Shown here: positions 11,148-60,104 of the stretch, in pieces
Layout: each line of letters opens with the position of its first letter
Numbering within the stretch: position 1 is the stretch's first letter
Origin: a virus
Length of the DNA: 64,000 nt
Virus record (IMG/VR): IMGVR_UViG_3300034524_000084
Coordinates: 33,781 to 97,780 of that record
Reading direction: 5' to 3' (one strand)
The notes under the pieces: model-generated
Database searches by the model: none
The model's input: only the letters and a program-made list of their open reading frames with translations
What the model was told of the DNA's origin: nothing
Position numbers and translations under genes: made by a program

Positions 11148-11456
11148 ATGACAGCAAATGAATATATGGAGAAATTATATTATGCTTTGCTTAAATACTT
11201 CGATAATGCAAATAAACCAGTTATATCTCCACGTGGGGGATTACTAGAAACAAAGAATGTATACGAGGGCAAAGAAGGATGTTTGAGATTAGCAAGAGAA
11301 TTTGGATATGGATTAAAAGATTACCCCGAAAAGGAAAGATTGGATGCAGCACAATCAAGTTATAGTTATTTATGTGTGCGAATATATAATTTTAAACCTC
11401 CTGTTTCTGCTAAAGAATGGATTCAAGAAATAATGAAAACATGGGAAGATAAATAA
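11148..11456 (+). CDS. hypothetical protein
   Basis: AGGAGG RBS, 102 aa ORF. Confidence 0.7.
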   Translation: MTANEYMEKLYYALLKYFDNANKPVISPRGGLLETKNVYEGKEGCLRLAREFGYGLKDYPEKERLDAAQSSYSYLCVRIYNFKPPVSAKEWIQEIMKTWEDK

Positions 11457-11491
11457 CACATAAAAATAATAAAAATTTTTAAAAAAAACTC

Positions 11492-11519
11492 TTGACAAAG
11501 AAAAAATGTGTGGTATAAT
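11492..11519 (+). promoter_or_regulatory. sigma-A promoter for cas12f
   Basis: TTGACA-16 nt-TATAAT with extended TG and A-rich UP element. Confidence 0.8.
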
Positions 11520-11609
11520 ATAAAATGTAAGCGTGAGGTGAATACAATGGATACGAGTTAAAAAATTTATTTTAAACGTACATAATAATAATAATAAGGG
11601 GTATGGTAA

Positions 11610-12983
11610 ATGGCAAAAAGAAAAAAAGAAAAAAGAACTATTATTAAAACACTAAAACTTGAATTGGTAGATGTTCTAAATTATCAACCACCTATTTCAA
11701 CAGATGAAAAAGAATATACAAAAAAAGAAAAAGAAAGAATGCTTAAAAAAGAACTTAGAGATTTACAAAAAAGAATAGCGCAAACTAGCAATTATATTAT
11801 GCGTGAATATTTTTTATGGGAATTGCGAAAAAATGCAGCTTCTAAAAATGGCATTGTGCTTAATGAAAAAGAAGAATTGGGTACCACACTTCAAAACAAA
11901 GGGTATAGAATCGCAGCTGAAACTTTGAAAGGATTGAATACAAGTAATATATCTGCTTTAACATCGTGGTTATGGGAAAATTGGAAGAAAGCCCGAAAAA
12001 GAGTATTGAATGGTAGTATAAGCTTGCCATCTTATGGTAATAAACAACCAATACATATTAATGGTAAAAATTATAAAATAATAGCATATAAAAATAATAA
12101 TGAGTATATAATAGAAATAACATTTTTAAGTCCTTCTGAAAAAAGAAATCGCACATTAAAATTTGTTACTGCAAAACAAGACAAATATCATCAAGATATT
12201 ATGAACAAAATATTAAATGGCGAATACAGACAAGGCTCAGCACAACTTATTTTAGAAGATAATCCTAATAAAAATTTAAGTGCACAAAAAATATTTTTTC
12301 ATTTTAATTATGAATTTATACCAAAACAAAAAGAAGAAATATCTGACAGAATTTTAGGAATTGATTTAGGGCTGAAAAATGTGATAGCGATGCAAGTTTA
12401 TGATCCACAACATCAACAATTTATAAGTCTTGATAATAATGAGTGCGTGATAGATGGTTTAGAACTAGTTATTTACAGAAATAAAATAGAAGCTTTAAGA
12501 AATAAGATAAGTAAAGCAACAAAATGGAAGGGGAAAGGTAATGTAGGTCATGGTTACAAAAAAAGAAATAAAAATGTATTAAATATACGCAAGAAAATTT
12601 CTAACTTTAGAAAAACTTATAACTATAAATTAGCTAAATATATAATTGATTTTGCATTAAAGTATCAATGTAAATATATTAAAATGGAAAAATTAACAAG
12701 ACATGGGTTTAGTGATACATTACTTCAAAATTGGACATTTAATGATTTGCAAAACAAGATAAAAAATAAAGCTAAAGAAAATGGAATTGAGGTTTTATTT
12801 GTTGAACCGCAGTATACTTCTCAACAATGCAGCAAATGTGGATATATAGATAAGGAAAACAGGGAAACAAGGGATAATTTTAAATGTAAGAAGTGCGGTT
12901 TTGAAATAGATGCTGATATAAATGCAGCACGAAATATAGCACTTTCGGAAAAAATTATTAAAGAAGATGATGATGATGAATAA
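11610..12983 (+). CDS. cas12f: Cas12f (type V-F, AsCas12f1-like) RNA-guided nuclease
   Basis: RuvC D/E/D intact (GIDLG, KMEKL, DADINAA), CxxC..CxxC zinc finger, AsCas12f1-like blocks (LNGSISLPSY, KILNGEY, GHGYKKR, LQNWTFNDLQ); adjacent CRISPR array. Confidence 0.88.
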   Translation: MAKRKKEKRTIIKTLKLELVDVLNYQPPISTDEKEYTKKEKERMLKKELRDLQKRIAQTSNYIMREYFLWELRKNAASKNGIVLNEKEELGTTLQNKGYRIAAETLKGLNTSNISALTSWLWENWKKARKRVLNGSISLPSYGNKQPIHINGKNYKIIAYKNNNEYIIEITFLSPSEKRNRTLKFVTAKQDKYHQDIMNKILNGEYRQGSAQLILEDNPNKNLSAQKIFFHFNYEFIPKQKEEISDRILGIDLGLKNVIAMQVYDPQHQQFISLDNNECVIDGLELVIYRNKIEALRNKISKATKWKGKGNVGHGYKKRNKNVLNIRKKISNFRKTYNYKLAKYIIDFALKYQCKYIKMEKLTRHGFSDTLLQNWTFNDLQNKIKNKAKENGIEVLFVEPQYTSQQCSKCGYIDKENRETRDNFKCKKCGFEIDADINAARNIALSEKIIKEDDDDE

Positions 12984-13000: not shown

Positions 13001-13076
13001 AAATACGAGGTGTTTCCACACCTCAAGCCGAGTTCGCCATTCTCGGCAATCCCTCATAGTAATAAAACAAAATGGC
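13001..13076 (+). ncRNA. putative tracrRNA
   Basis: Anti-repeat TCCCTCATA (13050-13058) and TAAAAC (13063-13068); hairpins 13007-13024 and 13027-13047; TTCCA (13014-13018) complements the repeat 3' TGGAA; ends approximate. Confidence 0.75.
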
Positions 13077-13176
13077 TGTCGTCGATCCCTAAAGGGTTTT
13101 GCATTATTGTACATCGACGACAAAAAAGAGGATACATAACCTCGGAAATACAAGAAATATCGGTGTTTCAAAACGG
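13077..13176 (+). promoter_or_regulatory. CRISPR leader
   Basis: TGTCGTCGAT/ATCGACGACA inverted repeat (13077-13086/13113-13122) and AT-rich stretch directly before repeat 1. Confidence 0.65.
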
Positions 13177-13407
13177 GTTTTAATATAACATATGAGGGAA
13201 TGGAATATAAAGGATATACTAATATATCTAATTCATTTATTTGTTTTAATATAACATATGAGGGAATGGAATCTGCTTTTCTGACTCTACCTATCATGTT
13301 TTCAATCCCTCGTTTTAATATAACATATGAGGGAATGGAATGATGGTAGCAGGGTAAAATATAGAAACCTTGAAAGAGTTTTAATATAACATATGAGGGA
13401 ATGGAAT
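13177..13407 (+). CRISPR. CRISPR array, 4 identical 30-bp repeats, 3 spacers (36, 39, 36 bp)
   Basis: GTTTTAATATAACATATGAGGGAATGGAAT at 13177, 13243, 13312, 13378. Confidence 0.97.
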
Positions 13408-22399: not shown

Positions 22400-23527
22400 A
22401 TGGCAGGTTCAATCAGAAAAAGGGGGAATAAATATCAGGTTGTAATTGAATTAGGAACAGATGTGAATGGCAAGAGATTAAGAAGATATTTTACTGCCAA
22501 TTCTGAGGCTGAAGCTAAGAAAATTTTAATAGAGCAAGAATATCTATTACAACAGAATAGTTTCTTAATTCCGTCTGACATGACTTTTGGGGAATTCCTT
22601 AATTATTGGTTTGATAATTATGTAAAAATTAAAAATGAAAAAACCACACAAACTGAATACCGACGAGTATTAGATAAATATATTATCCCTAAATTAGGAA
22701 ACATAAAATTACAGAAATTAATGCCACATCATATACAGAGTTATTATAAATATCTAATGGAAGAAGTTGGATTGTCTCCTAATACTGTCTACAAACATCA
22801 TGCTAATATACGTAAGGCATTAGATTACGCTCTAAAACAAAAATTTGTAAGTGCCAATGTGGCTGATGCTGTAGAATTACCTAAGAAAATTGAATTTGAA
22901 GGCAACTCATATACAATTGAACAATTGCAAAAATTATTAGAAAAATCAAAAGATACTTATTTGGAAGCACCTATAGCTTTAGCTGTTTACTTGGGATTAC
23001 GAAGAGAAGAAATTGCTGGATTAAGATGGGAACATGTCAATTTTGAAGAAAGAACTATATCAATAAAAGAAGTAAAAGTTAGAGCTGATAGGGAAGTTAT
23101 AGTTAAAAAACCAAAAAATAAAAGTAGCGAAAGGATACTTCATATTCCTGATGGGTTATATAATATTTTAAAGAAATGGAAAGATAAACAAGAATATCAT
23201 AAAAATCTTTTTGGTAAAAAATACGTAGAATCAGATTATGTGTGTACTTATTTTGATGGTAGACCTATAAAACCAGATAAACTAAGCAGGAGATTTAAGG
23301 AATTTCTATTAAGAAATAATTTACCTCCTATTAGACTACATGATTTACGACATACATTTGCTACAGTATTATACCAAAATGGTGTGCCTGTTAAAAATAT
23401 CTCAGAAGCATTGGGGCATTCTGATATTACTACCACACTTAAAATTTATGCCCATGTTATCGACAAAACCAACAAAGAAGCTGTGAATAAAATGGATGAT
23501 CTACTAAAAATCCATAAGGAGACATGA
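22400..23527 (+). CDS. int: tyrosine integrase
   Basis: Arm-binding N-terminus, GLRREE, HDLRHT, LGHS, IY. Confidence 0.96.
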   Translation: MAGSIRKRGNKYQVVIELGTDVNGKRLRRYFTANSEAEAKKILIEQEYLLQQNSFLIPSDMTFGEFLNYWFDNYVKIKNEKTTQTEYRRVLDKYIIPKLGNIKLQKLMPHHIQSYYKYLMEEVGLSPNTVYKHHANIRKALDYALKQKFVSANVADAVELPKKIEFEGNSYTIEQLQKLLEKSKDTYLEAPIALAVYLGLRREEIAGLRWEHVNFEERTISIKEVKVRADREVIVKKPKNKSSERILHIPDGLYNILKKWKDKQEYHKNLFGKKYVESDYVCTYFDGRPIKPDKLSRRFKEFLLRNNLPPIRLHDLRHTFATVLYQNGVPVKNISEALGHSDITTTLKIYAHVIDKTNKEAVNKMDDLLKIHKET

Positions 23528-23688: not shown

Positions 23689-25030
23689 CTGACATACTCT
23701 CTCCACTGAAGTGGAGAGGTTCTTTAAGCGAAGTTTGGTAGTCTATGCTACCCTTATTCGCTTGGGGCTGCCAAACCCTCTACTCCTATCCAGTACTGGA
23801 TTTGGAGCTACTCTCTTTAATATATTTATTGCACCATTTATATCTGCATTCATTACTGCACCGCATTTGCTACAGACGTATAATCCTCTGTATATGCGAT
23901 TATTTTTCTTCACTACACCGCATACACTGCAAGTCTGTGATGTGTACGCTTCATCTACCTTTTCTACTTCTATTCCATATTCTTTAGCTTTGTATTTTAT
24001 CATATCAAATAATCTACCAAACGGTATTTTGTGTAGTTTCTCGTTATTTTTATGTCCTATATCCATATTTGTTATTCCATCGCTCATTCCACCTATCACT
24101 ATCTTGCTTACTCCTTTTTCTTTCGCTAATTCTACTATATGTCTTGAAACTTTATGTATATAGTCTTTTACAAAATTATTCTCTTTGATTATTAAATTGT
24201 GAAACTTTTGCGATGTTTTGTATCCTTGTTTTGAAATTACAGATTGAATCTTCGCTTTTTCTTTGGCTAATAATCTTAATCTTGAGATAAGGTGACTGCC
24301 ATCGATGATAAATGTTTCTGGATTTTCTTCTATAACAATTGAAGCGAGATTCTTTACTCCAAAATCTATTCCCATTAATTTATCTCTTTTAGGCTTGATT
24401 TCTGGTATTTCTTTTTTGTAGATGATATGGACAAAGTAGGTGGTATATCCATAAGAAGTTTTTGGAACAATTTCAATTTCCTGTACAGTATTGAGCGATA
24501 GATTTTTCGGTAAATCTATCCATAGATATTTGGACTCAATACCGTACTTTTCTTTTAAATATTGCTTTGTTTGTGTGGACAATGATAGTCTGATTTTGCT
24601 ATTAATTATTTTTATGCCATTTTTCTTCCATCTTACAGGGATATGCCCGTTTTTGGGTTGATACTTCGGCTTTTTAGTATATCCATCAAAAAAATTCTTC
24701 CAAGCTATCTGTAGTTTTTGCAGTATTGCTTGTGCAGATTGTGAATGCAAGTTTTTATACCAGAAATTATCCTTTAAGCACTTTTCTAACTGATTTACTA
24801 ATACTTCTCTGTTTTGAACAGCATAGTTTGCAACGTTCCACAATTTTGATGCTGAGTATGTTAAATGTCCCAATATTATTCTGTGTTCGCTGTTGCAGTT
24901 AGAGAGTTGAAATACTATAACTCTTGTTACTATCACTTTTCTCACCTTCTTTCTGTTTTAGATCTGCTTTATTTTATCACATTTTTACCGCCTTTCATCT
25001 CTCCAATAAATTGGAGAGCGTTCTCGGCGG
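23689..25030 (-). mobile_element. non-autonomous IS200/IS605-family (tnpB-only) element
   Basis: Subterminal CTCTCCA/TGGAGAG hairpins at both ends (23699-23718, 24999-25018); right end ...GAGTATGTCAG; no TSD; no tnpA. Confidence 0.85.
23743..24945 (-). CDS. tnpB: TnpB RNA-guided endonuclease
   Basis: LWNVAN, MGIDFG, YIHKVSR, EAYTSQTCSVCG, NADING. Confidence 0.93.
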   Translation of the reverse strand: MRKVIVTRVIVFQLSNCNSEHRIILGHLTYSASKLWNVANYAVQNREVLVNQLEKCLKDNFWYKNLHSQSAQAILQKLQIAWKNFFDGYTKKPKYQPKNGHIPVRWKKNGIKIINSKIRLSLSTQTKQYLKEKYGIESKYLWIDLPKNLSLNTVQEIEIVPKTSYGYTTYFVHIIYKKEIPEIKPKRDKLMGIDFGVKNLASIVIEENPETFIIDGSHLISRLRLLAKEKAKIQSVISKQGYKTSQKFHNLIIKENNFVKDYIHKVSRHIVELAKEKGVSKIVIGGMSDGITNMDIGHKNNEKLHKIPFGRLFDMIKYKAKEYGIEVEKVDEAYTSQTCSVCGVVKKNNRIYRGLYVCSKCGAVMNADINGAINILKRVAPNPVLDRSRGFGSPKRIRVA

Positions 25031-33100: not shown

Positions 33101-35621
33101 TAGTAATAGCCGCATCAGCAATCTTAGCAGTAGTAATGGCAGCGTTCGCGATTTTAGCAGTAGTAATGGCAGCATCCTGTATTTTTGCAGTAGTAACAGC
33201 CAAATCAGCTATTTTTGCTCCATCAATTGCAGCATTAGCTATTTTAGCATTAGTTATAGCACCATCTACAATTTTAACACTAGTAATTATTCCATCTGCT
33301 ATTTGATTGGAATTTTCCACAAAATCCACTGCTACCCATGTTCCTGTAGACGCGCTATAACGATATGCTCTATCAACATCCGTACGATAAAAAACCTCAC
33401 CATCAACAGGCGAGGTTGGAAAGGATGTCCCTGATTTGCCAAGTATCCATTTTTCAATTTTAGCATTTGTTATAGAAGCATCCGCAATTTTAGCTGTAGT
33501 TATAGAAGCATCCGCTATTTTGGTGTTAGTTACAGCCCCATCCGATATTTTTGAAGTTGTAACTGCATTATCAACAATGCCTGCGGTATGAACGCCTTGT
33601 TCATCCAACAATATTGTAGTACCATCAGCCCCAAGAACTCTTAAACCATATACAGTACCATCTTTACTAACATCACCAAGTAATACTCTCTCATTATTGT
33701 TTTTATCTTTAACAGTCAACAAACTACCACTAATAGTAAAATTGCCTGTGTTATCAGAAATAGTCAATTGATTGCCAAGCAATATTCTACCAATTAATCT
33801 TTCAGCATATACTCCGCTTGCATCTAATACAGTTTTAAATGTATTGCCCCCATCGTTTGTGAAGCCAATTACACCATTTGTCATTCTAATAAACCTATTA
33901 GGATCTGAAGGATCTTGTATTGTAATACCTCGTCTACTTATTGTTACGCTGTTATTTACGCCACCCTCAATAGCTCTTTTTGCAGTATCCCATACATTAT
34001 TTAAGATTTGCTCTACATCATCTACTGTTGCTACAGTATTATTCCATTTGTATTTATTCATATCTACAACATTAGAAGAACTTACGCTTTTATAAAGCAT
34101 ATCTAAATATTGATTTAAATTATCTTTGATATTTTTTGTATTAGAAATAGTTATTTGAATATTGCCATCCTCATATTCAAAATTCATCTCTATTATTTGT
34201 GCTTGCACATTAATATTTAATCTTTCATATTTAATATTAATTATATCTCCAAGCACAAGTTTATCCCAATTCCTTTGTTCTTCTATTATATCAAGCAAAT
34301 TAACTATATCAACCTTAATTGTTAAAGGAGGAATTTTCATTTTTTCAAAAATTTTTATAGCATCATTATATAATTGTTGGTCGTCTATATAATTCTGGTC
34401 TTCCCATTCACGTTCAATCACGAATTGATTTAGTTCTTTAATTTGTTCAGGAGTAAAGTTGTTTTCTATTTTTAAAGTATTCTTCAAGTCATCAATCTGA
34501 GATTGCACACTCTGTATATTAGCATTATCTTGGTCAATTTCTGCTTGTTTAGCATTTAACTGACTTATTAGGTCATCTCTCTGCGCTATTAAATCTGTTG
34601 TGGGTTGCCCTGTAGTCTGTGCAATATCTAATTTATCTAAAACAATATCAAGTTGTAACTGAATTTGATAATATTCTTCTTGATGTTGTGCTAATGTTTT
34701 TTGGTAGGTTTCTAATTGACTTAATAAATCAGCAAAAACACCACGTTTAGATTCTACTAATTCTTGATAATCTAATAAAGCATTACATAGACTATCACTC
34801 ATGTAGTCAGAATGTTGTAATACATTTTTATTGGCATCACGTTGAAAAGGATACATAAAATAAGAAAAATCTTCAATATAGTTAGTTCCAGTTGGATTAA
34901 CTCTTTGTATACTTAAACCATCTTTACCAAATACTTTTAACCTCGTGACAACATTTTCATAATCTTCTTCTTTATTAATAGATTTCAAATACTTCCTATA
35001 AGAAACTGTTAAACCTCGATTAACCCCAATATTTTCTGGTTTATAAAAATTAATAGTTCTGTTTTCTGTATTCCAAATAATTAAAGCCCCAAATGTTTCA
35101 GCTACTTGAAATACAAAATCCAATACAGTTGTTTTGGAAACGTCAAAACTTCTATATTTTAAATCAAAATCAGCATCAATATAGCCAGTCGTCCAAGTTG
35201 TATTAGATAATATATCTGTAAGAACCTGAGTAGCATTATAACTTGTAACACTATATGTACGCATATTCTTGTCTTTTAACTCATAAGGCAAACTAAAACA
35301 CTCTATTGTTTTTGAATCACCATTATCATCGGCAGTATCAGTAATTTTAGTGATAATATACCATTCTACAAAATTCCCGTTGATTAATTTAATCAAATAT
35401 CTACCTTTTATCATTTCTATATGTGGGTTATCAACAAGTTCTCCCGCCATATCAATCTGAATAGGTAAACTAAACGATAATTCATTAATATTACCAAGTT
35501 TTAGCGTATGATTAATATTATAGGCTTCCTTTAATTTAGCAATAATTGTTCTATCTGGTTTACACAAAAATAATTGGGGTCTTTGTGGTTTTTTGTTATA
35601 ATCTATAGCTCCAAGCTCCAT
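30114..35621 (-). CDS. tail spike/host-specificity protein with 10-aa repeats, CBM-like and LamG domains
   Basis: VVTRLKVFGKDGL, AITTAKIA repeats, GGRNLI...KLEKGNKATDWTPAPED, LNGLIDDLRIS. Confidence 0.85.
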   Translation of the reverse strand: MELGAIDYNKKPQRPQLFLCKPDRTIIAKLKEAYNINHTLKLGNINELSFSLPIQIDMAGELVDNPHIEMIKGRYLIKLINGNFVEWYIITKITDTADDNGDSKTIECFSLPYELKDKNMRTYSVTSYNATQVLTDILSNTTWTTGYIDADFDLKYRSFDVSKTTVLDFVFQVAETFGALIIWNTENRTINFYKPENIGVNRGLTVSYRKYLKSINKEEDYENVVTRLKVFGKDGLSIQRVNPTGTNYIEDFSYFMYPFQRDANKNVLQHSDYMSDSLCNALLDYQELVESKRGVFADLLSQLETYQKTLAQHQEEYYQIQLQLDIVLDKLDIAQTTGQPTTDLIAQRDDLISQLNAKQAEIDQDNANIQSVQSQIDDLKNTLKIENNFTPEQIKELNQFVIEREWEDQNYIDDQQLYNDAIKIFEKMKIPPLTIKVDIVNLLDIIEEQRNWDKLVLGDIINIKYERLNINVQAQIIEMNFEYEDGNIQITISNTKNIKDNLNQYLDMLYKSVSSSNVVDMNKYKWNNTVATVDDVEQILNNVWDTAKRAIEGGVNNSVTISRRGITIQDPSDPNRFIRMTNGVIGFTNDGGNTFKTVLDASGVYAERLIGRILLGNQLTISDNTGNFTISGSLLTVKDKNNNERVLLGDVSKDGTVYGLRVLGADGTTILLDEQGVHTAGIVDNAVTTSKISDGAVTNTKIADASITTAKIADASITNAKIEKWILGKSGTSFPTSPVDGEVFYRTDVDRAYRYSASTGTWVAVDFVENSNQIADGIITSVKIVDGAITNAKIANAAIDGAKIADLAVTTAKIQDAAITTAKIANAAITTAKIADAAITTAKIANAAIDNAKIAAAAIDTAKIQDGAITNAKIAVGAIDSAKISHAAIDTAHIKAGAITTALIAQGAVGTAQIADGSITDAKIVSLNASKINAGTINTGQVTIQGANGKLKISNNRLQVFDNQPTPVERVSIGDVNNDGTVYGIRVRGADGQTVLYDHNGVYTEGITDGAITNPKISNGAVDSRVIAANSVLADHIVAGAITGDKIAARTITANNIAVNTITADSGVIANGAITNAMIANLDASKITSGYINAARIQAGSITVDKLASNVGSLLDISSNQAIKMRVTQSQLNEAINGINIGGRNLILNSNIENAHAEDEERTATFSRSSVAYLSNGTEVAANVPRYESGKFGKAIMVEEGTTNAISYAFTSDTNLLQYFTDTHSGSSVTIDTAQTPPVSGQKVLKHYAAVNDSYIMAKDANGVDYITASTAKLAVTGGSYVTFSIWAKGQNGGEQIEIFIFDYASDTGSLRVRRNQTFTITNTWQRCVVTVQTASDAVRAWARVDNDLAGQTVYWCAPQLEAKPYATSFIDGTRSPETLTIPTAGVLNPQEYTVEMWIRPSRARSAYLNYERVIEFYGTSGFSGVWLNNPSNSDGIAFVKNNASKVSANANWNANDWIFVAISQKSDGMHLWVGVAGSQLIHVSNTNTTPFNAEVTKILLGSNIYGTQSLNGLIDDLRISSRARTDEEIAAAYQSGQPLPVDEYTTWKMDFENSLRPSKPLQRDLSMSLVEGQEYMFSLTSSGKVSARIYSEDDKSDYIYADNGTTAIKFVPENTGEYTVELYSGVDNTEAKVKLEKGNKATDWTPAPEDTTTAIDDATTRIEGRISQITTTLDGITNQVSLVTTEMGQIREYAETLVQQTSTNIMATISQDLLDLENSLIQRYQADLQTTAQDLTLTFSGVWTSLDELSEDMAAFKTTFQFSAEGMEIGRAESLFKLKLTNDKMSFMDSGVEIAYFSTQKMYITEAEILNSIKVGNHLIEKYDDTITLVRWVG
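32880..33580 (-). repeat. coding 30-bp tandem repeats (AAITTAKIAD-like)
   Basis: Periodic GCAGTAGTAAT...GCATC units; in frame in tail spike. Confidence 0.85.
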
Positions 35622-53809: not shown

Positions 53810-56800
53810 CTAAACAATCAAATACTCCAACATACCTTTTAACATATTTTCGTAATCATCTTGATACAAATTATGTTTGTTATTTACTTCCAACTCGTTC
53901 ACATATGCTAATCCATATCCCAAGCTTGTAGCTCTATCTCTCTTCATTGTCTTTACCAATCTATCATAAATAATATTTCCAGAACCACTTATTGTCTGTG
54001 TAATATTTGCCAACTCTTCTATAAGTAAGTCAGTTTCAATAAACACAGCATATTCTTCAGGAGTAAGATTGTTTTCTTTAAACTGACTATCAACTTCTGT
54101 AGAAGGTATAAGCAATCTTACGGAACCATCTTCAAAACAAGATTTCATATAAGTATACATAGTATTATTAAAACTATTAGTAGCTGCTATTCCTCTTATC
54201 AACGGAATAGCACCTTTCAATTTTTTACCTTCTTCATCATCATCTAACACAAGGGGAGGGAACTCAATTACTTTTTTTGTTTTGGGATCTACATATTCCC
54301 ACGTCTCATAAAATAAATAAGGTAACCCTTCACCGTTGCCTCTCATATCTATTACTAATTTTTCAGTATTAGGGAATTTAATATGAACAAGCTCTCTTAA
54401 AAAATCTCTCTGCTCTTGTAAAGTAACCCCGTTATGTGTTTTTATGTACACCACTTCTTTGAAATAAGTACCGTTAGGACGAGGTTTTAACTTAATAACT
54501 GTTGTACATGCATTATCACTATCTTTTGCATTAGAAAGTGCAACGTCATGAACAACTATATATGAAGATGATGATTTCGAAGGTTGTTCTAACTCACATT
54601 TTTCAAGTTTCCTACATTTTTCAGTTAACTCATAAGGATAATATGATTCACTACTTGAACCAACAAAAACTCCTTCATCGATTTGTTACCCTATCGGCTT
54701 TTTATCCGATAGCTCTTGCACTTTACCATCGTGCAAGTCCAGCATACATCTTCACCCTCGACTTGTAAAATTTGCATCTTTAAATTTAATAGGCTTATCA
54801 ATTTTGTAAAGCATAGATGGAATTTGCTCTAAATATGGTTTGACAATGGAAATAAGTTTTTCTTTGCTTTCTATTGATGAAATTGCTAATCTTGGTTTTC
54901 CTCTGTCTCTTTGCACATTTGCTTTAATATTAAACTTATCCAATAAGTGTCTTGATAGATATTCAACTTCATCAAAAGAGAAATTATTAGTAGCAATCAT
55001 AAATGCTTCTATATATCCTGTTTCAGAAATTAAGCCCTTATCTTTTTTCTTTACTTTACAAGAACCATCATCCATAAATAGTATAGCTAATGATAGCTCA
55101 TCAAAATGGTCAACAAAAATTTTTGGCAATAATTTAACTTTATTTTTGTAAAACAGGTTGTATATACTGGTCAATTCATCTGAAACACCAGATGATGCTA
55201 CTAAAGCTGGATACGTTTTGCCTTTTTGATTGTGAATAACCTTTCTTATTTTCATTTCAAATCCGTATTCTTTTAATAAAGAGCATTTCCATTTTAAATA
55301 TTCTTCTTGCTTTAATGAATGTCCTATTTCTAATTGTGGAGTTTTTCCTGCCTTTTGAATTCTTAAATGTCCATCTCCAATTAAAATAGAGCCAATTAAA
55401 ACATCTTTCTTCGACAATGTTTTCATCGTCTACTACACCTCTTTCATTTTTTATAGATGCAAATTTTACTTTACGTTAGGGTGCTCGGCACTCGTGGGGG
55501 CATTATCGGGCGACACCGCATTCTCATTTTTTAAGTACAGTGTACTCCCCTAACCCTCAGCCCCTATGCGTTACGAGGGCAGGTGGTGTTCCTGCTTCTC
55601 ACGGTGTTACCCTATGTCTGACGTTTGCCAGTTGGAGGGCTTCACCGTTAGCTATTAACTTGCGTATTCTAATAATTTAATCATTTTTTCTTTTTTTCTG
55701 TGTAAAAAATCAGAATGAGTATATAAAATCTTTTCTACAAATTTTTTTATAGAATCCTTCCTTTCAATTGAAAGTATATAATAATTTCCCGTATGTGTAA
55801 CATATGTAATAATAGCATTATCAATCAAAACAGATTGCAAAAAATATACGAAAGATGAGCTAGCAGAAATCAATGTAATTTTTTTGGTTTTTTCGGTAAA
55901 CACGTAACTACCGTCACCATCAAAAATTCCTTTTATAAAATCAAATAAAAAATCCTCAGATATATTGGGAAATCGTAAATTATAAGTTTTCCTGCTTGTA
56001 CAACCATGCCTAATTAAATGCTTTACAAATATTTCACTTGTTATATCTAACTCCACATATGAATCTCTCTCATATATTGGATATGTAGAACGCAATTCTT
56101 TGCTAAACATTTCTAAAATTTCTTTGTCTTTTTTATGTACTCTTAATCTATACTGATTTCCTGAAATATTCCCATCCGTAAATGCCCAACCAAGATAATA
56201 AGCTTTATTTGGAGTATCAATATTTTTAAAATATTCAAAATCACAATAATATTTCCTTGTAAAATCTCTATTTTTAACCTCTTTTTTAAGCCCCAATTTA
56301 TTAGCCTTTAACATAATAGCATTCATACTTCTGTTTGGTAATAACTTTAATAAATCATATATATCAGTTTTTTCATAATATTGCTTAAGTATTAATAATT
56401 CTTCAAACTCCCATTTTTTATTTTCTGTTGTTAAACCCAACTCTTTCGCTTTTCTTGTAATAGTTCTTTCCGATTTTTGTAATTCATGTGCTAATTCTGT
56501 TAACGTCTTATAGCCATAATTATTTTTCAAATAAGCTATTTCATTATCGTTCCACAAAAAATAACACCTCTTTCAGAATACGCAAGTTAATAACCCCACC
56601 AAAGGTGGATTGCCGAGTTTGCACCACACAGTTTCCTGTGTGGGGAGCAAAAATTTACTCATACATAAATTTATCCGTCGTCATTGAAGGCTTTTCTTTT
56701 TCTTTAAGTATATCTTCCTCATAAAAAATACCAGCATCTACGCCAGCCCTATAGCTTAGTGAAGCAACAAAATAATCCTCAGAACCACTTTTCATCGTTT

Positions 56801-57999
56801 TGTAGTGATATACAAATCTCTTATATAAATCACAACTCTTTAAATAAGCAGATGAAATAAAAATAACTTTACCTTTTTCAGGAGGAAGTTTAACATCTGG
56901 ATGATCTTTTTCATAATCAAGAAGTATAGATCTTCTTGTTTTTGTCATCGGTATTAATATTTCTTCAATTACACTATCTTTAACTAATCTTGCCTCATCT
57001 ATCAAGATATAATTAAATCTCCAGCTTCTTGCACTATCACCAGACTGATTATTACCTAAGGTAATAGCCCTAATTTCAGAACCATTCCAAAAATTTACCA
57101 CGCAGTCATCTTGACTAATCTTAATAGGAAACTGTATCTCTCTCGCAATATTTTCATTTTTAGCTAATTCACCTTTTATCTTTTGAATAATTACGTTTCT
57201 CGCTTGCTGACCTTTACCACTTGCTATACCAAGCTTAATACCAGGATACAAAATTGCAGTAGCCACGAAGAAAAGGGCACTTATCCATGACTTCAATTTT
57301 GTTACCCTACAGGCTTTTTATCCTGTAGCTCTTACGGTTCATTTCCCGTAAGTTCAGCATAAATTTTCACCCTCATCGATAAGGTGCCCCTTATCATGTT
57401 AGGGTGTCCCCGCCTCGTGGAGGGATTATATTCTTTGGATATAGAGTCCAAAGGTTCACCCTCTATGCGTTGCCCCTGGCTATACTATTACATATAGCCT
57501 TCAGGTCGGGTTAGCATCTCAGCCTTCCCGCTTTTTTCGGGGATAATACTCCTAAGTATTTCTACTTAGGACGGCAGTCCTTTTGCTCTTGGTTAGGATT
57601 TCTTTACAAACACGAAATTCTTTGGCTTCTTCAAAACTTTTAAAATGTTTGCTCTTTCTCTTTCTGCCTTCTACAAACGTAACAACCCATTTTTTATTTG
57701 ATTACATTTGAGGCAAAATCAACTTGACTACCAATACCCCTGCTACATATCAGCATACTATTTTGATACCTTGCCATAGCTCTCAACATAAGACGCTGAA
57801 AAGGATAAAGTTTAACACCTAAAATATCAATTACAAACTCATCAATATAATATCTGTAATAACTCAAAAACTTAGCCCACTCATCATAATCAATAGGTTG
57901 TGGCTTTATAGGATCATAACTATACGGGCTATTAAAATTTTCATAAGCTCCTTCTTTTATCTTGCGACTTTTTTGACTAAAATTTTTATATGAAGCCAT
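53810..57999 (-). CDS. terL: terminase large subunit; exons 57999-57730, 57293-56657, 54678-53810 (591 aa spliced)
   Basis: Splicing restores Walker A SRGIG|KSW and FMYE|YEGVF; ILIDEAR Walker B; nuclease HDVA, IDMRG, KRDRATS. Confidence 0.9.
54752..55426 (-). CDS. LAGLIDADG_2 homing endonuclease
   Basis: GSILIGDG and LAILFMDDG. Confidence 0.88.
   Translation of the reverse strand: MKTLSKKDVLIGSILIGDGHLRIQKAGKTPQLEIGHSLKQEEYLKWKCSLLKEYGFEMKIRKVIHNQKGKTYPALVASSGVSDELTSIYNLFYKNKVKLLPKIFVDHFDELSLAILFMDDGSCKVKKKDKGLISETGYIEAFMIATNNFSFDEVEYLSRHLLDKFNIKANVQRDRGKPRLAISSIESKEKLISIVKPYLEQIPSMLYKIDKPIKFKDANFTSRG
55655..56557 (-). CDS. LAGLIDADG homing endonuclease with N-terminal HTH-like repeats
   Basis: Two W...E...LK..Y repeats; KAYYLGWAFTDG; FIKGIFDGDG. 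Confidence 0.88.
   Translation of the reverse strand: MWNDNEIAYLKNNYGYKTLTELAHELQKSERTITRKAKELGLTTENKKWEFEELLILKQYYEKTDIYDLLKLLPNRSMNAIMLKANKLGLKKEVKNRDFTRKYYCDFEYFKNIDTPNKAYYLGWAFTDGNISGNQYRLRVHKKDKEILEMFSKELRSTYPIYERDSYVELDITSEIFVKHLIRHGCTSRKTYNLRFPNISEDFLFDFIKGIFDGDGSYVFTEKTKKITLISASSSFVYFLQSVLIDNAIITYVTHTGNYYILSIERKDSIKKFVEKILYTHSDFLHRKKEKMIKLLEYAS
57294..57729 (-). mobile_element. group I intron 1 of terL (436 nt)
   Basis: Inserted in Walker A after GGT; core homologous to intron 2; ends in G. Confidence 0.85.
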
Positions 58000-58014
58000 T
58001 TTTATCACCACACT

Positions 58015-58770
58015 TTATAAGGAGCGCTCAATGTTAGCATAATAGTCCAATATTTTATCTATATCGTCTTTTTCAAGAGGAATATGACGTGGTATCCATT
58101 GATGTCTTTCCACCATTTCAAATATTTTACCAAAATTACCTAAACCAACATCATTTTGACTTCTCGTATTTTCTGCAAACTGCGCTGACTTTGATAAACT
58201 ATCAAATATTTCTTGTAATGCTTTATATCTTTTGTCTGCACCAGGTTTGCCATCAAGCATTTCTTGATATGCTTTATTAACTGCTAAGCTTGCCTGTGCT
58301 ATTTTTTTAGCATAATCAATATGATTTGTAGTCCTTATATTAAAATCTTTTTCTAATCCAGCTAAATAATTATCAAGATAATCAATTTCACTTTGAGTAT
58401 AATAGCCATGCCATTTTTTACTGTACATTTTCTTTTCATTATCAGGAGGAGGTGTCTCTTCTTCAAAAATGCTATCTTTCCATGTCATATCTTCATATTG
58501 TTTTAATGAATGAATTTCTCTAAGATAAGCACCTATAGGCTTAGGTTTATCTTTTTGCCTTTCCCACACAGTATATATAAAAGGCACATCCAATTGCCTT
58601 AAAATACTATATACTGACTCCATATCCGATGGGTCTACTTTATTATTTATGCAATCTTTACAAATAGGAGCATAACCATCATGTAAAGGACTTTTAGATT
58701 TATAAAAATTATTTAAAGCTAATTTCCTGCCACATAAAGAACAAATCTTAGTTCTATCCTTTTCGACCAT
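58015..58770 (-). CDS. putative terminase small subunit (zinc finger)
   Basis: CSLC...CKDC; immediately upstream of terL. Confidence 0.6.
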   Translation of the reverse strand: MVEKDRTKICSLCGRKLALNNFYKSKSPLHDGYAPICKDCINNKVDPSDMESVYSILRQLDVPFIYTVWERQKDKPKPIGAYLREIHSLKQYEDMTWKDSIFEEETPPPDNEKKMYSKKWHGYYTQSEIDYLDNYLAGLEKDFNIRTTNHIDYAKKIAQASLAVNKAYQEMLDGKPGADKRYKALQEIFDSLSKSAQFAENTRSQNDVGLGNFGKIFEMVERHQWIPRHIPLEKDDIDKILDYYANIERSL

Positions 58771-58785
58771 TTCACCACCCTCTCA

Positions 58786-58904
58786 CCTCTGTTCCCTCCT
58801 TAATTATCTTCTTTAGGAAATCGACAACCACCACTTTGTTTTTCTTTACAAGGGATTGCCGAGAGTGGTGGACTCGGCTTAGGGTGCAGAGATACCCCGT
58901 GTTT
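58786..58904 (-). ncRNA. orphan tracrRNA-repeat fusion (natural sgRNA-like scaffold)
   Basis: 43/54 identity to 13001-13054, similarity continues to 13094, then 16/25 ungapped match to the CRISPR repeat; compensatory changes in paired regions. Confidence 0.75.
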
Positions 58905-58916
58905 GGCTATAAAAAT

Positions 58917-60104
58917 CTATGATAAATTAATCTTATAAGTAATTGTCCTTCCTTTGCCTTCTTCAAGAATAAATAATTTTGCCCCTGCATTACTTGATCT
59001 TTTTAAACGCATAGAAAAATCATCTAACCCAATTATAGAAGGAGATTGAATTACCTCAACTTCACCGTTATCACCAATCGCAATAGTTTTTTCATAATTA
59101 TGATGCAAATGCCCAGCTAACAAAATATCGATTTTTTGATTGTATAAAAGCATATAATCCTTTAACGACTTTTCTAAATCTTTTTCATCTTGCCCATGTA
59201 CAGCAAGAATATTTACTCCAACTGTATTAAAATACTGCACATAAGACTCTCCAATATGTATATCAACATTAGGATTGTTTGCTAATGCAGTCTTTAAATA
59301 CCATGATATAATACGTTCAGTGTTTTCGTGAGGAAACTCTCCCCGTTGAGAACCAAGTGGACGAATTTCATTATGATTACCTAAAACATTATAATAATCA
59401 ATTCTAACGTATTTACTTAACTCGTTTAACCAATTAACCATAAAATCAGAAAAACCTATCACTGATTCTACTACACCTAATTGCAAAGATTGCAATTGAC
59501 TCATCCTTAAAATCCCATCAATACTATCCGATAAATTCACAACATTAATATGATTCAAACCTTCTTTATTGATTATTTTTATAATTTCACCTAATAAATC
59601 CCACATTCGTCGTTCAAATATTTCAACGTTGTAAATATTTAAAACCTCACCTTTAAGTCCTATAATATTAACTTCTTTACCATAATGACAATCTGCTATA
59701 GTTATAATTGCATCACATTTAGCCTGTTTATCTGGCTTAATATATTGAGGTATTTCCAAATTATATCTTTCTCTAATAGCCCTTTCTAACTTTTCATAAA
59801 ATAGCTCTATTCTTGCTTGCTCACGAAGCCATTTATTAATTTCATTTTTTTCTGTTTGTAATTTTTTTCTTTCTTTTTCAAGCTCTATTTTTTTCATCTC
59901 TATTTCTTGAAGCTTTTGCACCACATCTTCATTAACAACATCTTCTCGCTTAGGTAATAATCCATGTTTTTTGCGATAACGCTTAACAATCTGTCTTGCA
60001 TCTTCACCGCTAATACCAAACATTTTTCCAATATCAGACCATTTTAAATTATTTCTGCCTTCTATTTTGTCCAGACCTAATTTGATAAGTTCCTCCGTGT
60101 TCAT
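58917..60104 (-). CDS. calcineurin-like metallophosphoesterase
   Basis: DCHYG, D..DG, GNHNE, VHG, GHLH. Confidence 0.85.
   Translation of the reverse strand: MNTEELIKLGLDKIEGRNNLKWSDIGKMFGISGEDARQIVKRYRKKHGLLPKREDVVNEDVVQKLQEIEMKKIELEKERKKLQTEKNEINKWLREQARIELFYEKLERAIRERYNLEIPQYIKPDKQAKCDAIITIADCHYGKEVNIIGLKGEVLNIYNVEIFERRMWDLLGEIIKIINKEGLNHINVVNLSDSIDGILRMSQLQSLQLGVVESVIGFSDFMVNWLNELSKYVRIDYYNVLGNHNEIRPLGSQRGEFPHENTERIISWYLKTALANNPNVDIHIGESYVQYFNTVGVNILAVHGQDEKDLEKSLKDYMLLYNQKIDILLAGHLHHNYEKTIAIGDNGEVEVIQSPSIIGLDDFSMRLKRSSNAGAKLFILEEGKGRTITYKINLS

Follow-up and report, generated by a model that had tools for sequence, protein, structure and literature searches.

The window analysed here comprises the last 64 kb (64,000 nucleotides, nt) of a 97.8-kb phage record in IMG/VR (IMGVR_UViG_3300034524_000084, positions 33,781 to 97,780), a record with direct terminal repeats in which portal, tail, lysis and integrase genes are present. 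It holds a type V-F1 CRISPR locus with its cas12f gene, a trans-activating CRISPR RNA (tracrRNA or tracr; copy A in the following) and a mini-array and, at a distance from these, element B, in which a diverged tracr 5' core runs into the 3' end of a repeat. Tentatively, B is read as a collapsed second guide cassette of this Cas12f system, that is, as a single-guide-like leader that Cas12f would bind without cutting and whose guide segment would be the ribosome-binding site (RBS) of its own mRNA. This reading stands only narrowly ahead of an inert relic, which is nearly as likely.

Homology and long-range pairings of element B

The first 54 nt of B and A (58851-58904 and 13001-13054) make up the window's longest inverted repeat (54 nt, 80%), with 43 of the 54 positions identical and transitions at all 11 others, exactly as stated in the original prediction, which had been made from the letters of the window and is borne out by a script count and a covariance model. 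Beyond this stretch, the homology runs on with small indels over ≈ 97 nt of A (13001-13097), past the pseudoknot-2 partner and over the 5' arm and apex of stem 3, to about position 58808. The covariance model, built on the 5' 92 positions and searched against the whole 97.8-kb genome, returned exactly two matches, A with 116 bits and B with 97.6 bits (E ≈ 5e-22); B is the sole orphan copy in the genome. Rfam gave no match in the window. The predicted fusion of tracr and repeat end in one piece, with neither leader nor array, was likewise found. The 16/25 ungapped match of 58810-58786 to repeat nt 6-30, which the prediction had taken as repeat, was counted correctly (by hand), yet an origin from the repeat is convincing only for the last 13 nt: the preceding 12 nt fit the stem-4 region of the tracr no worse than the repeat, and MAFFT places them at stem 4.

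The structure of the canonical RNA was derived from the fold of the tracr with the first repeat and from six sequences, five of A type plus B. In the A-type order, hairpin 1 is followed by hairpin 2, the anti-repeat (to repeat nt 1-25), a 10-bp stem 3, a variable region and the repeat. Two long-range pairings are laid over this order, a short repeat:anti-repeat (R:AR) pseudoknot between the hairpin 1 loop, TTCCA, and TGGAA at the repeat 3' end, and pseudoknot 2 between the hairpin 2 loop and a segment 30 nt downstream. Over the six sequences, 95.7% of the cells of 51 pairs do pair, and eight pairs show double-sided changes, compared with 3.2 ± 1.3 in shuffles (0/500 reach 8) and 0-3 with slid partners.

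Both long-range pairings are kept in B by changes on both sides, as the prediction had described. TTCCA:TGGAA has become CTCTG:CAGAG, with three transitions in the repeat end matched by three in the hairpin 1 loop, so that 5/5 pairs are Watson-Crick and three have changed on both sides. GCCATT:AATGGC has become ACCACT:AGTGGT, with two pairs changed on both sides and two extra C-G pairs, giving 8 bp in total; the hairpin 2 loop differs from the A type at three positions. Across the two pairings, five pairs have been exchanged with pairing kept, and 13/13 pairs are intact. In hairpin 1, one A-T pair has turned into G-C, again as predicted, while the sixth pair of stem 1 is an A x C mismatch in the window and G-C in a population variant (run X3, see below). 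Nine of the 11 core substitutions are compensated or preserve structure (two in stem 1, three in the short anti-repeat, two in the hairpin 2 loop, one that adds a pair and one from G-C to G-U), and this count, like the all-transition pattern, fits an evolution by way of G-U intermediates. No other such repeat end, nor any repeat able to pair with the anti-repeats of B, exists in the genome, which makes B self-contained. Core pairings kept by compensatory change mean that the fold of tracr and repeat was under selection in the B lineage; the pattern shows that this lineage existed for long as a working tracr:repeat pair with private pairing rules.

As a guide scaffold, the role assigned to it by the original prediction, B has the core pairings and is incomplete in the rest. 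It is devoid of the 3' arm of stem 3, of everything between stem 3 and the repeat, and of the first ≈ 17 nt of the repeat; the long repeat:anti-repeat duplex (R:AR-1) is lost except for six proximal bp, and the distal anti-repeat is left without a partner. Even canonical copies whose Cas12f proteins are 96% identical show little conservation between stem 3 and the repeat, so the loss of this region in B may be tolerated. The coordinates of B and of the features around it are compiled in Table 1.

Table 1. Positions of element B, its parts and the associated genes in the window.
Feature	Position	Strand	Remarks
Element B, tracr 5' core fused to repeat 3' end	58786..58904	-	119 nt
Hairpin 1 (stem 1)	58881..58898	-	5 pairs, one of them G-U; the short anti-repeat is the loop, CTCTG (58891-58887)
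Hairpin 2 (GCCGAG/CTCGGC), loop TCCACCACT	58858..58878	-	stem identical in 6/6 copies
Proximal anti-repeat TCCCTT	58850..58855	-	6 bp (one G-U) with GAGGGA 58798-58793
Pseudoknot-2 partner AGTGGTGG of the hairpin 2 loop	58828..58835	-	8/8 Watson-Crick, duplex -14.1 kcal/mol
Orphaned stem 3 5' arm (TTGTCGAT)	58820..58827	-	from alignments; 3' arm absent
Repeat 3' end mimic, 13 nt	58786..58798	-	9/13 identical to the array repeat end; CAGAG 58791-58787 is the short repeat strand
Guide-position flank	58766..58785	-	Shine-Dalgarno and ATG (58770-58768) of the YonG-family gene, read directly
YonG_N-family protein gene, downstream, 251 aa	58015..58770	-	phrog_3314, PF27269; N-terminal zinc ribbon
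Exonuclease gene (phrog_284), upstream	58917..60104	-	stop codon 13 nt before B
cas12f, 457 aa	11610..12983	+	PF07282; presumed protein partner of B
Canonical tracrRNA (A)	13001..13176	+	≈ 175 nt; z-score of the fold with the first repeat -6.5
Mini CRISPR array, 4 repeats and 3 spacers	13177..13407	+	

The canonical Cas12f locus and the guide position of B

The nearest solved structure to the Cas12f of the window is that of AsCas12f1 (E 3.5e-60), and in the alignment the RuvC D/E/D motifs are kept; the enzyme appears to be catalytically intact. A perfect sigma-70-type promoter lies upstream of cas12f, at 11492-11519. Orthologous canonical loci were found in four other contigs (L003, L029, L034, L036), at the same position, with the same downstream gene and with different spacers, and repeat/anti-repeat covariation is seen across these four tracrRNA copies. 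INPHARED phages gave no DNA match to A, B or the arrays, and the Cas12f homologues of cultured phages reach no more than 39% identity. Spacer 3 of the window is matched at 36/36 positions by a protospacer in the viral contigs L147 and L148, by which the canonical array targets other phages. The 5' flank of this protospacer, TTTA, agrees with the NTTR protospacer-adjacent motif (PAM) of AsCas12f1 (PMC11246509), the PAM of the present enzyme being known from this single protospacer and from homology. Ten spacers searched against the collected loci gave no match, nor did one scan with the spacer of a relative.

The canonical arrays of relatives end in shortened or degenerate, spacer-less repeat fragments (L003:4725-4765; L034, past the third spacer), which shows ongoing decay at the ends of these arrays. 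In L034, spacer 3 (L034:1489-1524) resembles the first codons of the gene just 3' of its own array (L034 ≈ 1590-1640), 26/36 and in frame; its source seems to have been a diverged homologue, so that related phages appear to be targeted at their gene starts by the arrays of this group.

The original prediction had named the ≈ 20 nt that follow the repeat end of B as the guide and as the RBS and start of terS. The Shine-Dalgarno sequence and the ATG are indeed found there; the gene belongs to the YonG_N family, and the label terS amounts to a guess from gene order. A guide position of this kind invites comparison with two close sister phages without B, in which the 251-aa protein is 98% and 95% identical (L005, the same contig as L149, and L006, the same contig as L151; the L005 and L006 fragments end short of the Cas12f site). 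In both, 23-30 nt of the guide-position flank are identical. Within IMG/VR, the guide-position 19-mer is limited to the two sister contigs plus one unrelated gene, preceded by TCTG, TTGA and GTCA, never by TTTA/NTTR; the flank in B itself is the repeat end, CAGAGG. Sites without B, which the prediction had proposed to look for with a PAM, are present as two sister alleles, filled by other cassettes and with flanks TCTG and TTGA in the place of a PAM, and its suggestion that relatives lacking the element are cut finds a full guide match in these alleles, preceded by the wrong bases. Sites combining PAM and seed occur genome-wide at chance level, and in the cas12f promoter region (11380-11640) the best guide match is 10/14, with no PAM. 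Given these flanks and the missing promoter match, neither the cutting of rivals nor the auto-repression of cas12f has positive support. The best PAM-plus-seed site, within chance, is at C1:18947-18992 of the genome, outside the window, where the first 9 nt of the B guide follow TTTG in a palindromic, terminator-like hairpin.

The phage encodes a second RNA-guided nuclease, a 400-aa TnpB of IS605 type (PF07282 and PF01385; 23660-24945, minus strand, with the tnpB gene at 23743-24945). It has its own omega-RNA-like 3' region and lies convergent, tail to tail, with the integrase gene (22400-23527). The DNA for its C-terminal part resembles that of cas12f, with 74-86% similarity (inverted repeats I2 and I3).

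The genomic slot and the population variants of B

B fills nearly all of the 146-nt gap between the exonuclease gene and the 251-aa gene, and the flanking genes all lie on the minus strand, with no terminator between B and the YonG-family gene. The sister phages are homologous to the window precisely from the first base of the guide position onward, and at the opposite border their homology breaks off no more than a few bases from the 5' end of B; the cassettes that they hold in between are different and unrelated. By this comparison of sequences, the site is best described as a cassette-exchange slot and B as a cleanly bounded occupant.

The alternative cassettes have features of their own. 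The L006-type cassette (L151:9253-9560, minus strand) includes a segment that is rich in GC and resembles a tRNA, with a T-arm-like GGTTCGAGTCCCAACC; neither ARAGORN nor Rfam recognized it, and it may be another small RNA gene. In L149 (minus strand), the ≈ 250 nt before the YonG-family gene contain a 27-codon open reading frame (ORF) and, just before the gene, a promoter-like TTTACA...TATAAC. In replacing this cassette, B takes away a probable late promoter. A mini-ORF of four codons (58772-58786, minus strand; a start, AGA GGG TGG, and then TGA) closes with one base to spare ahead of the main ATG. All three alleles retain its start, as GTG, GTG or ATG, and in the window the repeat mimic sets AAGGAGG eight bases upstream of it. 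On the 3' side of the YonG-family gene, at 53810-58011 (minus strand), phrog_15503 is split over two ORFs (57694-58011 and 56655-57296), followed by two LAGLIDADG endonuclease genes (55655-56557 and 54752-55426); a 36-nt repeat, 89% identical, occurs at 54682-54717 and 57298-57333. This region looks like a late (terminase-like?) gene broken by introns or inteins that bear homing endonucleases; Rfam found no intron match.

B was recovered from contigs of four further runs (X2-X5) from four studies, which comprise hydrocarbon, subsurface and oil-facility metagenomes and one small organism run; X4 seems to come from an isolate that bears the phage. B is identical to the window in X2. In X3 it carries three changes, one in the unpaired distal anti-repeat, one that turns a G-C pair of stem 1 into G-U and one that restores the sixth pair of stem 1, so that two of the three preserve or improve this stem. 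The changes among the variants are too few for a selection test, and a rough comparison of the polymorphism of B with that of third codon positions was not robust, the differences being bunched in one likely recombination patch. Run X3 also holds an allele without B, in a contig that leaves the window exactly at 58786/58785 and continues as an L005-type cassette, and both alleles are present at similar contig depth. Scans of viral, metagenome and genome collections with the core motif returned only A-type copies (L003/L040, L029, L034, L036) and chance matches in GC-rich DNA; neither a second B-type copy nor a Cas12f locus of B type was found in these collections.

Precedents and competing readings

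AsCas12f1, whose guide RNA has been described structurally (PDB 8J12, 7WJU, 8DZJ), is the closest solved homologue of the presumed partner of B, and its RNA can be mapped onto those of A and B by analogy, not by alignment. The conserved protein-binding core of the AsCas12f1 RNA consists of stem 1, stem 2, part of stem 3 and R:AR-2, and truncations of stem 3/4 abolish DNA cleavage (bioRxiv 10.1101/2023.07.03.547593); targeting requires the short repeat:anti-repeat pairing (PMC11246509). Unlike the AsCas12f1 tracrRNA:crRNA (CRISPR RNA) pair, B is one piece, lies 45 kb from cas12f, has no array and is devoid of stem 3/4 and the long repeat:anti-repeat helix, with which AsCas12f1 reportedly cannot dispense for cleavage. 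Compared with the traits of a V-F1 scaffold, it has homology to the cognate tracr, an R:AR-2 next to the guide on a (weakened) stem 1, and a stem 2 with its tertiary partner; stem 3/4, the R:AR-1 helix and a PAM-flanked target are missing. By this analogy, B is a core-only scaffold for which binding is plausible and cleavage doubtful.

In the literature searched, no account turned up of a truncated fusion of tracr and repeat that belongs to a nuclease-active V-F1 system; the remark of the original prediction that it knew of no described equivalent needs qualifying, since partial ones exist. The virus-encoded single-guide RNAs (vsgRNAs) and tracr-L of type II Cas9 systems (bioRxiv 10.64898/2026.06.01.729453) resemble B as one-piece fusions of tracr and crRNA outside a CRISPR locus, of phage origin and plausibly non-cleaving. 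The vsgRNAs work with the Cas9 of the host, from their own promoter and with a truncated guide that matches the cas9 promoter beside a PAM; B, by contrast, would work with a phage-encoded Cas12f, has its parts in reverse order (tracr 5', guide 3') and has no PAM-flanked target. A second partial counterpart is provided by the chimeric single guide RNAs (gRNAs) of dCas12f (Hoffmann et al., Nature 2026, PMC13472631), in which a dual guide has likewise collapsed to one scaffold with a 3' guide, and some of which stand alone. Those RNAs belong to a RuvC-truncated dCas12f with sigma-E in Bacteroidota and show no tracr-like RNA species, whereas the partner of B keeps the D/E/D motifs and has a canonical tracr and array in the same genome.

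The omega-RNA of TnpB (IS200/IS605) is a single RNA as well, its guide is the DNA that flanks the 3' end of the scaffold, and the carrier is protected in that the scaffold takes the place of the transposon-adjacent motif (TAM) or PAM. B differs from an omega-RNA in that no tnpB 3' end overlaps it, transposon ends are missing and a TAM appears to be absent from its left border. It lies 3' of the exonuclease gene, and the tnpB of the phage is 34 kb away, with a 3' region unrelated in sequence to B. The geometry of a flank used as guide is present; the bases before the left end of B would not set TTTA beside the target on excision. Orphan CRISPR RNA parts reportedly occur in viruses also as solitary repeat units, RNA anti-CRISPRs and mini-arrays; compared with solitary repeats and mini-arrays, B is mainly a copy of tracrRNA, with just 13 nt of repeat.

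The tentatively favoured sequence of events may be outlined as follows. A diverged tracrRNA 5' core would have been joined in one piece to the last 13 nt of its cognate repeat, and the intervening parts, namely the remainder of stem 3 along with the variable stems and the long repeat:anti-repeat duplex, would have been deleted. B would be transcribed as an intercistronic leader of the YonG-family gene, as suggested by the common strand of the flanking genes and the missing terminator, and would fold into the conserved L-shaped core, in which stem 1 stacks onto the short pseudoknot, stem 2 forms a pseudoknot of its own and 6 bp of proximal repeat:anti-repeat are paired. A dimer of the phage Cas12f would bind this core, and in the guide position the mRNA would present its own Shine-Dalgarno sequence and start codon. 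With the stem 3/4/R:AR-1 helix missing and no PAM at its own DNA or at the sister alleles, a non-cutting complex would be expected. Such a complex could occlude the RBS in cis and couple the translation of a late gene to the level of Cas12f, or it could simply soak up Cas12f. This reading is backed by the perfect key pairings, the clean architecture, the occurrence in several populations, the compactness of phage genomes, the precedents for one-piece guides, and a Cas12f that appears intact behind a strong promoter.

A number of observations weigh against it. B is devoid of the stem 3 3' arm, and this stem, which is invariant in the five canonical copies, evidently matters; the stem 3/4 portion whose truncation kills cleavage by AsCas12f1 is missing. 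The mismatches in stem 1, A x C in the window and a second, central one in X4 and X5, which carry as their one change a G-to-A at 58895 that breaks the central pair, look like relaxed constraint. The nested fold of B is no more stable than that of shuffles (z -1.1 to -1.3), although nested folding cannot score pseudoknots and the value is not counted against a pseudoknotted model. B has no dedicated promoter, the closest promoter-like site lying 130 nt upstream, inside the exonuclease gene. It is confined to one lineage, and a 75.8-kb contig with the canonical locus and the YonG-family gene gave no match to the A/B core motif, so that, on this indirect evidence, B is not an obligatory part of the system. 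It is hard to see a clear reason for a phage to tie a YonG-family gene to Cas12f. Finally, compensatory change is a record of past selection on the lineage and no proof of present selection or function; in this sense the predicted selection on the fold stands for the past, and covariation does not imply a present function at this site.

Several of these points speak at the same time for an inert relic, an explanation that we regard as nearly equal in standing. A once complete second cassette of tracr and array would have lost its array and the middle of its tracr, and the RNA would have no present function; at most, its arrival would have removed whatever preceded the gene start. The absence of the invariant stem 3 and of most of the long duplex, the mismatches building up in stem 1 of some variants, the restriction to one lineage with apparent absence from a Cas12f-positive relative, the missing dedicated promoter and terminator and the missing PAM-flanked target would all be expected of such a remnant. 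The shortened repeats at the ends of the arrays of relatives demonstrate that decay of this kind occurs, and the slot is one where cassettes are exchanged, with unrelated sequences in the sisters. The relic could be private to the lineage, or it could stem from recombination with the array of a rival phage, for instance between a gene start and a spacer matching it, by which the repeat would come to be joined, base for base, to the target. Spacers against gene starts exist in the group, as the 26/36 resemblance of a relative's spacer to a phage gene start indicates, which makes an origin by spacer-target recombination plausible. It is less easily understood why 13/13 long-range pairs should be perfect despite 20% divergence of the core from A, because long neutral decay should break some of them. 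The lost parts have been cleanly deleted rather than degraded, and the ends of the unit match the tracr 5' end and the repeat 3' end exactly. Furthermore, phage intercistronic DNA is seldom junk, and B persists in five data sets.

Much less probable is an omega-RNA-like weapon or homing guide, whereby Cas12f loaded with B would cut co-infecting relatives that have the same gene start and no B, the carrier being spared as the repeat end replaces the PAM. The guide would come from the flanking DNA, as in omega-RNA, and the flank in the carrier is no PAM; sister alleles with a perfect 23-30-nt match exist, one of them alongside the B allele in X3, and an apparently intact Cas12f with an array directed at other phages would be at hand. 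Yet every allele without B that was seen has TCTG, TTGA or GTCA before the match, although knowledge of the PAM comes from one protospacer and homology. The scaffold is also without the helix that AsCas12f1 needs for cleavage, the two alleles are found at similar contig depth in X3, and the left end of B appears to have no TAM that excision would bring next to the target. It is improbable that B is a working type V counterpart of omega-RNA in a phage, namely a protein-less, one-piece guide gene that draws its guide from the adjoining gene start, labels its carrier as self by standing in for the PAM and acts in allele-level drive or exclusion between co-infecting phages, against sister alleles that bear a PAM; it may have been born by recombination between a spacer and its own target.

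More unlikely still is an RNA decoy, the type V analogue of vsgRNAs and RNA anti-CRISPRs, which would soak up the Cas12f of a rival phage or of the host with a harmless guide lacking a PAM-flanked target. Phage mimics of single-guide RNAs that sequester Cas9 have been described (bioRxiv 10.64898/2026.06.01.729453), the phages of this group attack one another with Cas12f arrays, and B keeps the binding core and not the parts linked to cleavage; its private internal pairings would leave the canonical tracr:crRNA pairing undisturbed. Against this, a decoy would sequester the Cas12f of its own phage as well, B has no dedicated strong promoter, its guide has no match to the cas12f promoter, and no B-type Cas12f locus was found in the collections scanned.

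The least probable is a leader that regulates translation or stability of the YonG-family mRNA independently of Cas12f, with the pyrimidine-rich tracr loops acting as anti-Shine-Dalgarno sequences: the hairpin 2 loop and 3' arm do form 10 consecutive pairs with the ribosome-binding region (-20.7 kcal/mol, a value reached by 75/3000 shuffles), only 1/108 gene starts tested binds hairpin 2 more tightly and the minimum-free-energy fold uses this pairing, but the A-type hairpin 2 pairs equally with the same RBS (-21.5 kcal/mol), so the complementarity is not derived in B, and the compensation in the repeat end is left unexplained. A local adaptation of hairpin 2 to the RBS was dropped for the same reason.

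If B is active, it would rank as the first one-piece guide of natural origin for a Cas12f that is nuclease-active and tracr-dependent. It would represent a minimal scaffold of ≈ 119 nt, ≈ 90 nt shorter than the canonical tracr plus repeat of the same enzyme, and show which parts of a Cas12f scaffold nature discards, which would be useful for compact editors. It would furthermore extend the idea of the virus-encoded single-guide RNA from Cas9 to type V, and document the transition from dual to single guide proposed for dCas12f. Should B be a relic, it still records the decay of phage guide cassettes and their movement between cassette slots.

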